DNA of 45,138 nt from a virus, in the IMG/VR virus record IMGVR_UViG_3300000976_000010. One strand, 5' to 3'. Every line of letters starts with the position of its first letter. Within the stretch, counting starts at the first letter, position 1. The notes under the pieces are model-generated. The model worked only from the letters and a program-made list of their open reading frames with translations, ran no database searches and was not told the origin of the DNA. Of this stretch, positions 9,892 to 17,328 are shown one piece after another. The translations under genes were made by a program, and so were the position numbers.

Positions 9892-10224
9892 CTATTTGAA
9901 TTCGTTATAAAAAATGTCTATGTCTTGAATAGTTTTACGTATTAGCGAGTCCAACTTAAATAAATGATCTAGTGTCTTTTTCAATTTATTTAAATCGGTA
10001 ATATAGTGAGTATACAATATAAATCCTTCCTCGTTACAAAGAATAAATTCACACCTATCACACTCATGCTGTATAGAATACTTCCCATCTAAAAATTCCA
10101 ATGAAATATAATACTCAGTGTCGTTTTCGTGGTAAAATCTTTTTTCTAATCCTGCTTCTAGTGCATCTTTTTCGCTAATCATAATATTTTTTACAAATCT
10201 AACTCTTTGAATCCTATTTTCCAA
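9892..10224 (-). CDS. hypothetical protein
   Basis: ORF track. Confidence 0.6.
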   Translation of the reverse strand: MENRIQRVRFVKNIMISEKDALEAGLEKRFYHENDTEYYISLEFLDGKYSIQHECDRCEFILCNEEGFILYTHYITDLNKLKKTLDHLFKLDSLIRKTIQDIDIFYNEFK

Positions 10225-14445: not shown

Positions 14446-14503
14446 ATTTTTAAATTATGTACTTAGGTTAAAGAAAATATGAAATGAACTATTATAAAAA
14501 GGT

Positions 14504-14581
14504 TTTAATATGTTAAGAAAACGTTAAAATTACGTATAGTTAGGAATAACAGAATTAATGTACTATATTTGTATCAACAAG
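14504..14581 (+). repeat. 78-bp promoter/start repeat, copy 1
   Basis: Two mismatches to 14949-15026; contains GTTAA-N6-GTTAA, ATG 14558 and TATATTTG 14564-14571. Confidence 0.95.
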
Positions 14582-14953
14582 TATATCAGAAAAGAACTTG
14601 ATGAAGAGATTCGTAAAGTAGGACTTGAAGGGCGAAGTGAGTACCTTTATAATTTGAAAAAAGGGGATTCCGAACTCAAAGCATTTACCAACGGAATTAA
14701 GATGGTTCACAGCCATGATTTCAAATCTTTTTCCATCGTTTTTTCTATCCACGGTGAACACAGGAGATTATTCATAACACACACATGCAGCTCGGATAAT
14801 AGTGAAATTTATGAAGGTGAGAAAATAATATTCGACTTGGGCTGTCACGGCCACAGCAAAGAGATAATGAAAGTTGTTATTGAAGCTGTAAGAGATTTTG
14901 GTGATGTTTATTATACGCCTAATGATGCGGAGCAAGAATACAAAAAGATTTAA
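14558..14953 (+). CDS. hypothetical protein flanked by the 78-bp repeats
   Basis: Starts MYYICINK inside repeat 1; stop TAA inside repeat 2. Confidence 0.6.
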   Translation: MYYICINKYIRKELDEEIRKVGLEGRSEYLYNLKKGDSELKAFTNGIKMVHSHDFKSFSIVFSIHGEHRRLFITHTCSSDNSEIYEGEKIIFDLGCHGHSKEIMKVVIEAVRDFGDVYYTPNDAEQEYKKI

Positions 14954-15026
14954 TATGTTAAGGAAACGTTAAAATTTCGTATAGTTAGGAATAACAGAAT
15001 TAATGTACTATATTTGTATCAACAAG
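14949..15026 (+). repeat. 78-bp promoter/start repeat, copy 2
   Basis: 445 bp downstream of copy 1. Confidence 0.95.
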
Positions 15027-15389
15027 GAAAATACATACCCCCAATTAGACATTAAAAAGGTAGAAGAATACTTAGAGAATAGAGGGTATGTAGAACTAGT
15101 AGTGGACGGCATCATTAATATTTACTACGAAGAATCGGATGTTTATCAAATGCTTTTGGAATCATCTCAATCCAATGTCTCCGTTGTGCTTAGACACAAG
15201 CATCTTTCAAAATGGGAATTGGAAGAAACGTACTTGGAAAGGTATCAACACGACATTAATCGCTTAAAGTCGGTTCGTGCTAAACTGCTTAAATCGCATT
15301 ATCGTGTTAATTACGAGGACGAAAAGTTATTATTTTTGAAGCAAAATAAAAGAAAACTGCAAGACCTCCTAGACCGATTGGAAGATTAG
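15003..15389 (+). CDS. hypothetical protein
   Basis: Starts MYYICINK inside repeat 2; remainder unrelated to the previous ORF. Confidence 0.6.
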   Translation: MYYICINKENTYPQLDIKKVEEYLENRGYVELVVDGIINIYYEESDVYQMLLESSQSNVSVVLRHKHLSKWELEETYLERYQHDINRLKSVRAKLLKSHYRVNYEDEKLLFLKQNKRKLQDLLDRLED

Positions 15390-15460
15390 AAAAAGAAGGC
15401 CAAAAGGTTATCGACTATTGCAACCAAAATCAAATACTTTGATTATTTACATACAACAAT

Positions 15461-15591
15461 GAAGCTGTAGCTCAGTTGGTAGAGTGTTTCACGATAAGTC
15501 TAGGGAGGGGTTCGAGTCCCAAATGTCTCAAAGGCATTCAAGGGTAAACCTAGCATGGAACGGGTCGGTGGTTCAAATCCACCTAGCTTCT
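15461..15591 (+). ncRNA. tRNA-like RNA with a 64-nt structured insert replacing the anticodon loop
   Basis: Acceptor GAAGCTG/TAGCTTC, D arm GCTC-AGTTGGTA-GAGT, stem (G)TTTCA/TGGAA(C), T arm GGTGG-TTCAAAT-CCACC; insert 15492-15555; no CCA encoded. Confidence 0.85.
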
Positions 15592-15592
15592 T

Positions 15593-15629
15593 GGGAATCT
15601 AAAGCTTTGAGCTTAGATTCCCTTTGTTT
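15593..15629 (+). terminator. intrinsic terminator directly after the tRNA-like RNA
   Basis: GGGAATCTAAAGC-TTTGA-GCTTAGATTCCC followed by TTTGTTT. Confidence 0.8.
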
Positions 15630-15651: not shown

Positions 15652-17328
15652 ATGGCATTAAAAATATTCGACCAATTATCAATAAGAATGAGCAGAATGA
15701 GAACTCAAATAGACGAGTTCTTATCTACTAAATTGGGCTTAAATGATTCAGGAGAAGCGAGAATTTACAAGACAATTCTAGATGTTATTCAGGATATGAA
15801 TAGCTTATCCATGTTATACCAAGCTCAATCCCATAAGCAACTAGCTAAACAAACTGCCACAAAAGCAACATCAATAAGGGGTTTAGCGGCAATATCAGGT
15901 CATAATGCAACACGTCCCATATCCGCTAGGGGAACTGTATTACTAAGGAAGAATGAATCATTTTCTGTAGGTAGCTACTTGAATGTTTCGCCTTCTTCTA
16001 GTCTAATTTGCCAAACTAACAACCTGCCTTATATCGTTAATATTGACACGGAAAAGAAGTATTCCCTATCGACAAATTCACTTGAAATCCCGTTAATACA
16101 AGGTAAAATAAAAACACAGAGTTTTGTTATAGATGCGACTAGTGAAGACACAACACTTTACACAATACGATTGGATGATGAGGAGTATATAGAAAATTAT
16201 TCGATTAAAGTAAAGGTTAACAATGTAATTTGGAAAAAGGCCGATTCTTTATTAGACATGGCCTTTGGTGATTATGAGTACATTATAAAAAACGGTTGGC
16301 AATCTCAGGTAGATCTTATGTTTGGAGATTCTACACACGGAACAGAACTCAAACACGGTGATTTAGTAGAAGTAGAATACTTAGTAACAAACGGAGAGTT
16401 GGGGATATTAACAGCAAGTGACACATTTACAATTGTGGAAGGATTCACCAATTCAAATGGAGACGAATTGACCGATTTCATAATTACTAGAAATAGTGGG
16501 TTTATGTTGGCATCCAATGGGGAGAGAAGTGAGGTAACACGAAATTTAATCGGGTTTAGCTCAAGGTCTTTAACATTTGCGACTCCTCAAAATTTAAAGG
16601 CGTACCTAAGTAGACTTAGTATTTTATCACACATTTCCGTATACTCGGAAAAAAATAACGACCTAATAACCCATGTATTAGCTTTGCCATCGCTCAATTT
16701 CCTTAATAGCAGAGACTATCTAAATACTAGCGAATCATTCTTTAGGTTGAGCACAATACAGAAGAATGCTATAAAGGACATGATTAACAATTCTAGGAGA
16801 CAGTTTCCCTCTTCTGAAATCGTATTGGATGATCCAATCCTTAAAAGATACTCTATGTTGGTGTACATAAGAGGAGAATTTGATGATGATGCTCAAATAA
16901 AAAATGGTATATTGGATAACATATCTGAAATAATGTTGTCAGCAACCTTCAAAAGTATTGACATGAATTTTGATAACAGGATAGTCAATTCTGAATTTGT
17001 TAATTCAATATTCAATATGGATGAAATAGAATCGGTTAAAGTGAACATTTTTTCAGAGGATAATGAACAAGCCAAATATAATGGTTTTTATTTTGTAGAC
17101 GAGACTGTTGTTGAGGGAGCTAGTCGATTAGTAACGTCTGTCAGAAAAGAATTGCGCGATGGTGAAAATCCAAACATAGGTCTAAACAATCTGAATAGTA
17201 TAGTTGTGAGCGATGGCCAAGTTCCAATTTTGAGACCAATTGAACTTTATAGCAATGGAACTCTGAGAAGAGTTAATGATGCTGTTACTGTATTTGTGGA
17301 GCGAAACGGAATATTTAAGCAACTTTAG
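15652..17328 (+). CDS. baseplate wedge subunit, T4 gp6-like
   Basis: TATKATSIRGLAAISGHNATRPISA; LMFGDSTHG...VEVEYLVTNGELG. Confidence 0.85.
   Translation: MALKIFDQLSIRMSRMRTQIDEFLSTKLGLNDSGEARIYKTILDVIQDMNSLSMLYQAQSHKQLAKQTATKATSIRGLAAISGHNATRPISARGTVLLRKNESFSVGSYLNVSPSSSLICQTNNLPYIVNIDTEKKYSLSTNSLEIPLIQGKIKTQSFVIDATSEDTTLYTIRLDDEEYIENYSIKVKVNNVIWKKADSLLDMAFGDYEYIIKNGWQSQVDLMFGDSTHGTELKHGDLVEVEYLVTNGELGILTASDTFTIVEGFTNSNGDELTDFIITRNSGFMLASNGERSEVTRNLIGFSSRSLTFATPQNLKAYLSRLSILSHISVYSEKNNDLITHVLALPSLNFLNSRDYLNTSESFFRLSTIQKNAIKDMINNSRRQFPSSEIVLDDPILKRYSMLVYIRGEFDDDAQIKNGILDNISEIMLSATFKSIDMNFDNRIVNSEFVNSIFNMDEIESVKVNIFSEDNEQAKYNGFYFVDETVVEGASRLVTSVRKELRDGENPNIGLNNLNSIVVSDGQVPILRPIELYSNGTLRRVNDAVTVFVERNGIFKQL

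Follow-up and report, generated by a model that had tools for sequence, protein, structure and literature searches.

The window analysed here, a stretch of 45,138 nucleotides, is part of a 137-kb IMG/VR record (IMGVR_UViG_3300000976_000010) that derives from a very large phage and is about 37% complete according to CheckV. Its baseplate wedge protein (gp6 in T4 terms, encoded at 15652-17328) shares 39-40% identity with its counterparts in the Tenacibaculum jumbo phages pT24 and PTm1; the gp6 proteins of the Lak megaphages are more distant relatives of it than these two. Between gp6 and an upstream ORFan, with all three on the same strand, lies an element of 131 nt (15461-15591, plus strand), which is directly followed by a terminator-like hairpin. 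The coordinates of the features, together with those of four analogs from other phages that are discussed below, are collected in Table 1.

The ORFan had no homologs among 5.8 billion proteins, PHROGs and Pfam family searches returned nothing for it, and the ESM Atlas gave no meaningful match. Its AlphaFold model, with a pLDDT of 51, is too poor for use, and ThiI/THUMP-like rows in the ESM Atlas output were discounted as faint hits (TM of about 0.4) obtained with a poor model. Just upstream of the element there is an 85-bp direct repeat, the two copies of which (14497-14581 and 14942-15026) are 95% identical; because the ORFan starts inside the second copy, the ORFan, the RNA and the terminator look like one inserted cassette. 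The insert sequence described below has no second copy elsewhere in the 137-kb record, and a candidate double T-loop at record positions 10038-10123 was rejected, since no tRNA-like gene is found there.

An earlier note on this DNA, written from the sequence alone, had compared the TTACATA in front of the element with the late motif of the phage. The comparison proved weak: the GTACATA form, which is conserved in front of gp6 among relatives, has an ORF start 10-71 nt downstream of it at 16 of its 20 occurrences, whereas TTACATA precedes an ORF in this way in only one case out of eight. It is more likely that the RNA is transcribed together with the upstream ORFan, via read-through, than from a promoter of its own.

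Table 1. Features of the tRNA-like element and its surroundings in the window, and positions of four permuted analogs in other phage sequences
Feature	Position	Strand	Observation
Upstream ORFan, 128 aa	15003-15389	+	Start within second copy of 85-bp direct repeat
TTACATA, variant of the phage GTACATA promoter-like motif	15447-15453	+	7 nt 5' of the first base of the RNA
Outer acceptor stem, 5' strand, GAAGCTG	15461-15467	+	Pairs 7/7 with 15584-15590, one G-U; base-pair probability 0.77-1.0
Outer D arm, GCTC-AGTTGGTA-GAGT	15470-15485	+	Canonical AGTTGGTA loop; agrees with Rfam tRNA consensus
Outer anticodon-type stem, 5' strand, GTTTCA	15486-15491	+	6/6 paired with 15556-15561
Internal-loop strand CGATAAGT, 8 nt	15492-15499	+	No U33, no usable anticodon context
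Inner stem, 5' strand, CTAGG	15500-15504	+	5/5 paired with 15549-15553; retained in constrained optimum
Inner T arm, GGG-TTCGAGT-CCC	15508-15520	+	3-bp stem plus possible G.A layer; aligned as T arm by the Rfam tRNA model
Inner closed acceptor-like hairpin, AATGTCT-CAA-AGGCATT	15522-15538	+	7/7 bp, one G-U; abuts T stem
D-loop-like single strand CAAGGGTAAA	15539-15548	+	Read from sequence, compared with outer D loop AGTTGGTA
Inner stem, 3' strand, CCTAG	15549-15553	+	Partner of 15500-15504
Outer anticodon-type stem, 3' strand, TGGAAC	15556-15561	+	Partner of 15486-15491
Outer T arm, GGTGG-TTCAAAT-CCACC	15567-15583	+	Canonical; ARAGORN, Rfam alignment
Outer acceptor stem, 3' strand, TAGCTTC, and discriminator T15591	15584-15591	+	CCA not encoded
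Intrinsic-terminator-like hairpin (15593-15622), then TTTGTTT	15593-15629	+	-16.9 kcal/mol, z = -3.9
Permuted analog	L064:5932-6065		All helices paired, same order
Permuted analog	L287:7691-7813 (identical to L347)		All helices paired, same order
Permuted analog	L340:11734-11856		All helices paired, same order
Permuted analog	L004:4857-4978 (identical to L043)		All helices paired, same order

The outer part of the element has the features of a canonical tRNA (RF00005), namely, a 7-bp acceptor stem and D and T arms with conserved loop residues, and in all three of these parts the base-pair probabilities lie between 0.77 and 1.0. In the place of the 7-nt anticodon loop stands an insert of 64 nt (15492-15555), the parts of which follow one another as a stem, a second T arm, a closed hairpin and a GG-containing strand. 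CTAGG, with which the inner body begins, corresponds to the 3' strand of the anticodon-type stem of the inner module; GAG joins it to the inner T arm, and a single A lies between this arm and the hairpin. The hairpin itself, in which the G.U pair (G15534.T15526) is the third from the loop end, has base-pair probabilities of 0.8-1.0 and is also present in the minimum free energy (MFE) fold. Within the D-loop-like strand, AGGGTA preserves the D-loop order A14, R15, G18, G19, A21 with no D stem around it, and the 3' strand of the internal loop consists of CA alone (2 nt), opposite the 8-nt 5' strand. The outer cloverleaf with its stems and terminator (acceptor 7/7, outer stem 6/6), as well as the inner stem, second T arm, closed 7-bp hairpin and GG strand, were all found where the earlier note had placed them, and the weak points that it had itself named, an inner T stem of three Watson-Crick pairs and a missing inner D stem, were borne out as well.

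The inner module falls short of a real tRNA in its 3-bp T stem, its lack of a D stem and its variable strand of 3 nt. The parts of a tRNA elbow that are retained in the insert are a canonical T loop, a hairpin stacked on the T stem and the D-loop-like strand AGGGTA. These observations support an anatomy consisting of a tRNA shell and a circularly permuted tRNA-like top half, the whole without a usable anticodon.

In its default mode ARAGORN made no call at the element; with introns allowed, it called a tRNA at exactly 15461-15591 with a 59-nt insert. The Rfam tRNA model aligned end to end with 15461-15530, by way of the inner T arm, but scored only 16.2 bits where the gathering score is 29. 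The YrlA model (RF02553) had no match at E <= 10 either in the region or in the whole 137-kb record, and a tmRNA was detected at the element neither by ARAGORN (-m option) nor by Rfam. The earlier note had proposed ARAGORN and Rfam as a check on its claim; the intron-mode call speaks for the tRNA frame, and the tRNA, YrlA and tmRNA models all stayed below threshold. Default tRNA finders and Rfam miss genes of this kind.

In 64 nt, about 0.003 occurrences of the inner T-loop motif would be expected, and the outer shell and this motif clearly derive from tRNA rather than from chance. The two inner stems by themselves are only moderately unusual: among dinucleotide shuffles of the insert, 16% contained a hairpin of at least 7 bp, 22% a closing stem of at least 5 bp and 2.8% both. 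A chance origin of the inner hairpin is less likely still because the hairpin abuts the T stem.

Folding energies give the nested arrangement little credit. The proposed fold has an energy of -33.8 kcal/mol and the MFE fold, which is 2.9 kcal/mol lower, one of -36.7 kcal/mol; the ensemble probability of the nested fold is 0.05-0.1, and within it the inner closing stem reaches 0.05 and the inner T arm 0.01. The MFE of the whole element (z = -0.94) is no better than that of shuffled sequence. When the acceptor and both T arms are enforced, the proposed fold is the optimum, at -34.4 kcal/mol. T arms are stabilised by tertiary contacts, for which nearest-neighbour energy models give no credit.

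The search for relatives of this copy was negative throughout. BLAST against GenBank phages returned generic tRNA pieces only and no homolog: 15468-15519 matches genes for tRNA-Ile and tRNA-Asn colinearly (77-80% identity), as 15549-15583 does the 3' halves of tRNA-Pro. An exact 19-mer of the element is absent from IMG/VR, patterns built on the T loop, the D arm and their spacing found no relative in IMG/VR or the JGI metagenomes, and two insert-specific patterns found none in GTDB genomes; most matches to the double T-loop pattern were discarded as ordinary tRNAs accompanied by a partial copy or a neighbouring tRNA. In the contigs of five gp6 homologs (58-100% identical), the element is absent or the contig begins just past its site. 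Where gp6 is 58-71% identical, the upstream spacer is different and shorter, and the contig with an identical gp6 begins just after the element. A complete relative genome of 368 kb contains neither a BLAST match nor a pair of T loops 30-60 nt apart.

The design of the element, as distinct from its sequence, was found again in other phages. The sample consisted of about 3 Mb of phage DNA returned by T-loop pattern scans and is biased towards such loci; because the loci were fetched by these patterns, we make no statement on the frequency of the design. ARAGORN in intron mode called 2,964 tRNAs in this sample, including 102 distinct ones with inserts of at least 25 nt. Some of these conform to the published Lak type, which is discussed below. 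The permuted nested order, that is, a shell, a T arm, a closed acceptor-like hairpin and a D arm or GG strand, is present in eight other unrelated families. The most complete example is a perfect double cloverleaf of 150 nt (L194:7682-7831) situated within a phage tRNA array, in which eight helices are fully paired: the outer acceptor, outer D arm, outer stem, inner stem, inner T arm, inner acceptor, inner D arm and outer T arm. Its inner acceptor is 7 bp long and closed by GTAT, its inner D arm is complete, and its anticodon-type stems are joined by an internal loop of 4 nt and 7 nt, compared with 8 nt and 2 nt in the window element. In another analog (L325:11287-11405) one stem is common to both bodies, and the constrained fold lies within 0.2 kcal/mol of the MFE; in three more (L096, L353 and L354) a T arm and a 9-bp hairpin within a closing stem make up the MFE fold itself.

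In a GC-rich trio (L120, L333 and L337), the outer acceptor, anticodon-type stem and inner hairpin vary in sequence and are always complementary, and the single strand CGAATGGCCCC is invariant across the three. MAFFT misaligns members that are not homologous, and in the alignment of the trio the 3' end is already shifted by one column. The analog families have no sequence similarity to one another, and the grouping of phage "double cloverleaf" elements, the window element included, rests on shared architecture and not on sequence homology. Since the same order of modules recurs in eight unrelated phage families, the architecture with two elbows and no anticodon is counted as supported; it is upheld by compensatory change in at least one family, the trio. 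In open-access text we found no description of the permuted form with a closed acceptor.

Our preferred reading is that the locus encodes a non-decoding RNA derived from tRNA, in which two tRNA elbows are joined via their anticodon-type stems and which serves as a bivalent mimic; we give it a probability of about 0.45. Several observations count against it. No homolog of this copy was found, and the closest relatives of the phage, including the complete 368-kb genome, are without the element; the nested fold is energetically disfavoured, its inner T stem is short and an inner D stem is missing; two parent tRNAs brought together by a recent rearrangement could have passed on the intact helices; and no partner protein (Ro60/TROVE, RtcB, T4-type RNA ligase or CCA-adding enzyme) was found in the 137-kb record, which covers about 37% of the genome.

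The strongest competitor takes up that last but one point. According to it, the element is a dead tRNA gene, formed when a recent rearrangement placed the junction between the 3' half and the 5' half of one tRNA into the anticodon loop of another; the product would be under no selection, and its helices would pair only since the halves still match their original partners. The absence of relatives, the shortened T stem and the missing D stem make this a serious rival, if one that we consider somewhat unlikely. The element is an orphan among all sampled relatives, its pieces are colinear with tRNA-Ile/tRNA-Asn and tRNA-Pro as expected of a tRNA chimera, its inner module is degraded in the T stem, the D stem and the variable strand, its folding energy is no better than that of shuffled sequence, and the direct repeat just upstream points to recombinogenic surroundings. 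Against this stands the distribution of the losses, since none of the 25 pairs in the four inter-half helices is broken and what has been lost is in the D stem, with the D-loop residues spared. A dead gene also fits poorly with the recurrence of the architecture in many unrelated phages, one family of which keeps it through compensatory changes, and with the tidy unit made up of the ORF, the RNA and the terminator.

A second alternative, which we regard as improbable, is that the locus is an intron-containing tRNA gene, from which the insert is excised and the halves rejoined into a working tRNA by a route undemonstrated in bacteria or phages. Such a route has been proposed for the Lak megaphages and their "enigmatic introns" (Devoto et al. 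2019, PMC6784885), and part of the evidence is in keeping with it: the tRNA frame is otherwise intact, and the insert occupies precisely its anticodon loop; short inserts other than group I introns have been published for Lak phage tRNAs (PMC6784885), and we confirmed two of them in Lak-A1; Lak phages infect Bacteroidota, as do the nearest cultured relatives of this phage; and the sample of phage DNA contains the 102 distinct tRNA-like genes with inserts mentioned above. Excision of 15498-15555 would leave ACGATAT, with the anticodon GAT and A37, which fits the weak similarity to tRNA-Ile.

The same sequence reveals the difficulty. With the insert placed between positions 37 and 38, the remaining ACGATAT presents GAU together with C33, not U33, and no register of the loop strands yields a canonical anticodon loop in a normal tRNA frame; the claim of the earlier note that there is no usable anticodon holds in that no splice register combines U33 with such a frame. 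The best guess of ARAGORN, AGC, lacks nucleotide 26, and the G3:U70 pair that identifies alanine tRNAs is absent from the outer stem. Removal of the inner body from L325 and L194 likewise leaves strands of 5 nt and 11 nt rather than a loop of 7 nt. There is no bulge-helix-bulge motif (two 3-nt bulges and a 4-bp helix) at the junction, which is an internal loop with strands of 8 nt and 2 nt. The insert is too small for a group I intron, with 64 nt compared with about 200 nt or more for a group I core, and has no Rfam match. No RNA ligase, whether RtcB or of the T4 type (T4 RNA ligase 1), was found in the 137-kb record. In inserts of the Lak type the ends pair as an acceptor stem, from which tRNA-trimming enzymes could release them; here, trimming enzymes would open the closed acceptor loop and not excise the insert, because the ends of the insert lie in an internal helix. 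We favour the non-decoding RNA with two elbows over a spliced tRNA because there is no normal anticodon register and no bulge-helix-bulge, and because the insert is too small for a group I intron and its ends are internal. Were the locus an intron after all, it would represent a tRNA-splicing route new to bacteria.

Very improbable is a role in mRNA punctuation, in which the element would only give RNase P a place to cut the ORFan transcript or shield the 3' end of that transcript: its position on the same strand between the ORFan stop (15389) and the terminator, with an unconvincing promoter of its own, would suit this, but a plain tRNA or hairpin would suffice for the purpose, and the second body and its recurrence in phage tRNA arrays (L194) would be left unexplained.

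If the two-elbow reading is correct, the life of the RNA can be sketched as follows. It and the upstream ORFan would be transcribed together, as one small cassette. Its outer body has the frame of an ordinary tRNA, both ends of which are open; the host RNase P would trim it at G15461 and the 3' processing enzymes of the host at the other end, after which CCA would be added. The inner body is arranged in permuted order as a stem, a short variable strand, the T arm, an acceptor-like helix closed by CAA, the GG strand and the stem again. By analogy with the Mycobacterium smegmatis YrlA, RNase P may also open the 7-bp inner helix, with a cut between 15531 and 15532; the RNA would then consist of two pieces, one of about 70 nt and one of about 60 nt, with four helices keeping them in a complex. 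As a mimic of tRNA with two binding sides, such an RNA would occupy or bridge proteins by which the elbow of tRNA, or the minihelix of acceptor and T arm, is recognised, and would take no part in decoding. The more specific roles suggested for it, as a decoy, as a scaffold or bridge, or as the precursor for a ligase, are speculation.

A wider and more doubtful proposal is that many phage lineages encode a class of double cloverleaf RNAs with a permuted inner body, which mature via host enzymes and function as bivalent mimics. Members of such a class would consist of two tRNA bodies joined anticodon stem to anticodon stem, with the inner acceptor closed by a small loop, and maturation by the host could turn them into two-piece complexes with two CCA tails. 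Their conceivable targets, to be sequestered or bridged, are tRNA-binding host factors such as defence nucleases and enzymes that process or modify tRNA; the window element lacks an inner D stem and would thus represent a reduced form within the class. Viruses and cells repeatedly use mimicry of tRNA to engage the machinery that handles tRNA; YrlA, tmRNA and certain plant-virus RNA structures are examples. If our reading is true, a phage RNA that displays two tRNA elbows while lacking an anticodon would constitute a new geometry of mimicry, and the convergence of unrelated phages on one layout suggests a common host target.

Among known systems, the canonical tRNA (RF00005) is like the element in its outer acceptor, D arm, T arm and anticodon-type stem, and differs from it in the 7-nt anticodon loop, which is absent here. 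Permuted tRNA genes, in which the 3' half, with the T arm and the 3' strand of the acceptor, comes before the 5' half, with the 5' strand of the acceptor and the D region, occur in the red alga Cyanidioschyzon merolae and in some archaea. Such genes stand alone, and their maturation involves a bulge-helix-bulge, passes through a circular intermediate and depends on a protein splicing endonuclease. The inner module of the window element also places the 3' half before the 5' half; it differs from these genes in that the permuted unit is embedded in another tRNA, has no anticodon loop and no bulge-helix-bulge, and belongs to a bacterial host. The T4 RNAs rnaC (species 1) and rnaD (species 2) are stable tRNA-like RNAs of tRNA size or larger from a phage tRNA cluster, but they have no sequence similarity to the element; rnaC ends with a canonical T arm, its only one, and has neither a nested body nor an ARAGORN tRNA frame.

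The Lak megaphages provide a close parallel in setting: there, too, a short tRNA-like insert lies in the anticodon loop of a tRNA of a very large Bacteroidota phage (PMC6784885). The two Lak-A1 inserts are unpermuted tRNA shapes, with ends that pair as an acceptor stem and a T arm beside the 3' strand, whereas the window insert is permuted, with the T arm beside the 5' strand and a closed acceptor-like stem; moreover, its removal does not restore a canonical anticodon loop.

A close parallel in layout is YrlA, whose modules are arranged as T arm, closed acceptor-like stem and D region (Chen et al. 2014, PMC4201824) and whose closed 7-bp stem is cut by RNase P in M. smegmatis, followed by addition of CCA (PMC4201824). 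The earlier note had identified the inner module with this permutation, and the shared order and the 7-bp closed stem agree with it; the absence of any RF02553 match and the stemless D region do not. The search for Ro60/Rsr that it had proposed leaves the link to Ro60 unsupported, as no TROVE gene was found in the 137-kb record (about 37% of the genome). The element further differs from YrlA in lacking the helix or motif bound by Ro60 and an inner D stem and in having a 3-bp T stem. Where YrlA has its Ro-binding stem, the window element has a second whole tRNA body, and its ends are those of a tRNA acceptor stem.

Together, the ORFan at 15003-15389, the tRNA-like RNA and the terminator that follows it look like an inserted cassette. 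This ORF is the second of a pair that begins in an 85-bp direct repeat: the ORFs at 14558-14953 and at 15003-15389 each take their start and the same first eight residues (MYYICINK) from one copy of it and are unrelated beyond that. On the other side of the tRNA-like element, a GTACATA motif precedes the gene for the baseplate wedge protein gp6, and it is kept at this place in relatives with just 58-71% identity (L003, L126, L127 and L128). Within the window, 16 of the 20 occurrences of the motif lie 10-71 nt 5' of an ORF start; GTACATA is probably a promoter element of the phage group to which the window phage belongs. A Logan contig from a phage with an identical gp6 (L129:1-100) starts inside the terminator hairpin directly 3' of the tRNA-like element; its match to the window runs from about 15600, and the assembly break lies at or near the tRNA-like gene.

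The inner 7-bp helix of the insert has a single G.U pair, G15534.T15526, at the third position counted from the loop end. Were the loop opened, this pair would equal G3:U70, the alanine identity pair, a correspondence that may be coincidental; a matching G.U pair is absent from the other members of the double-cloverleaf class. In the GC-rich family (L120, L333 and L337), a self-complementary GGCC occurs both in the invariant inner strand CGAATGGCCCC and in the outer D loop AGCGGCCTA, so that the two bodies could touch each other through a loop-loop contact.

Coordinates of the repeat and of tRNA-like RNAs in other sequences.
Feature	Location	Remark
85-bp direct repeat	window 14497-14581 and 14942-15026	copies 95% identical
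GC-rich family members	L120:10109-10230, L333:1214-1335, L337:5644-5757	
Perfect double cloverleaf	L194:7682-7831	in phage tRNA array
tRNA-like gene	L194:8133-8244	37-nt hairpin insert at canonical 37/38 position
tRNA-like gene, 126 nt	L194:9101-9226	insert begins with T-loop
Phage T4 rnaC (species 1 RNA)	L147:2909-3047	

Three adjacent tRNA-like genes with inserts were seen in one phage tRNA array (L194:6816-9226). Four further sequences (L308, L313, L322 and L346) carry a conserved family of tRNA-shaped RNAs of about 140 nt, each closed by a 7-bp acceptor-like stem and containing three motifs that resemble T-loops; the stretch GAAATGNTAATGGTTGTAGAAAA is invariant in the family. As for known systems, the species 1 RNA of phage T4 drew no tRNA call from ARAGORN, even with introns allowed, and carries at its end a canonical T arm, CCGGG-TTCGAAT-CCCGG; it is an old case of an unexplained phage RNA with tRNA-like character.
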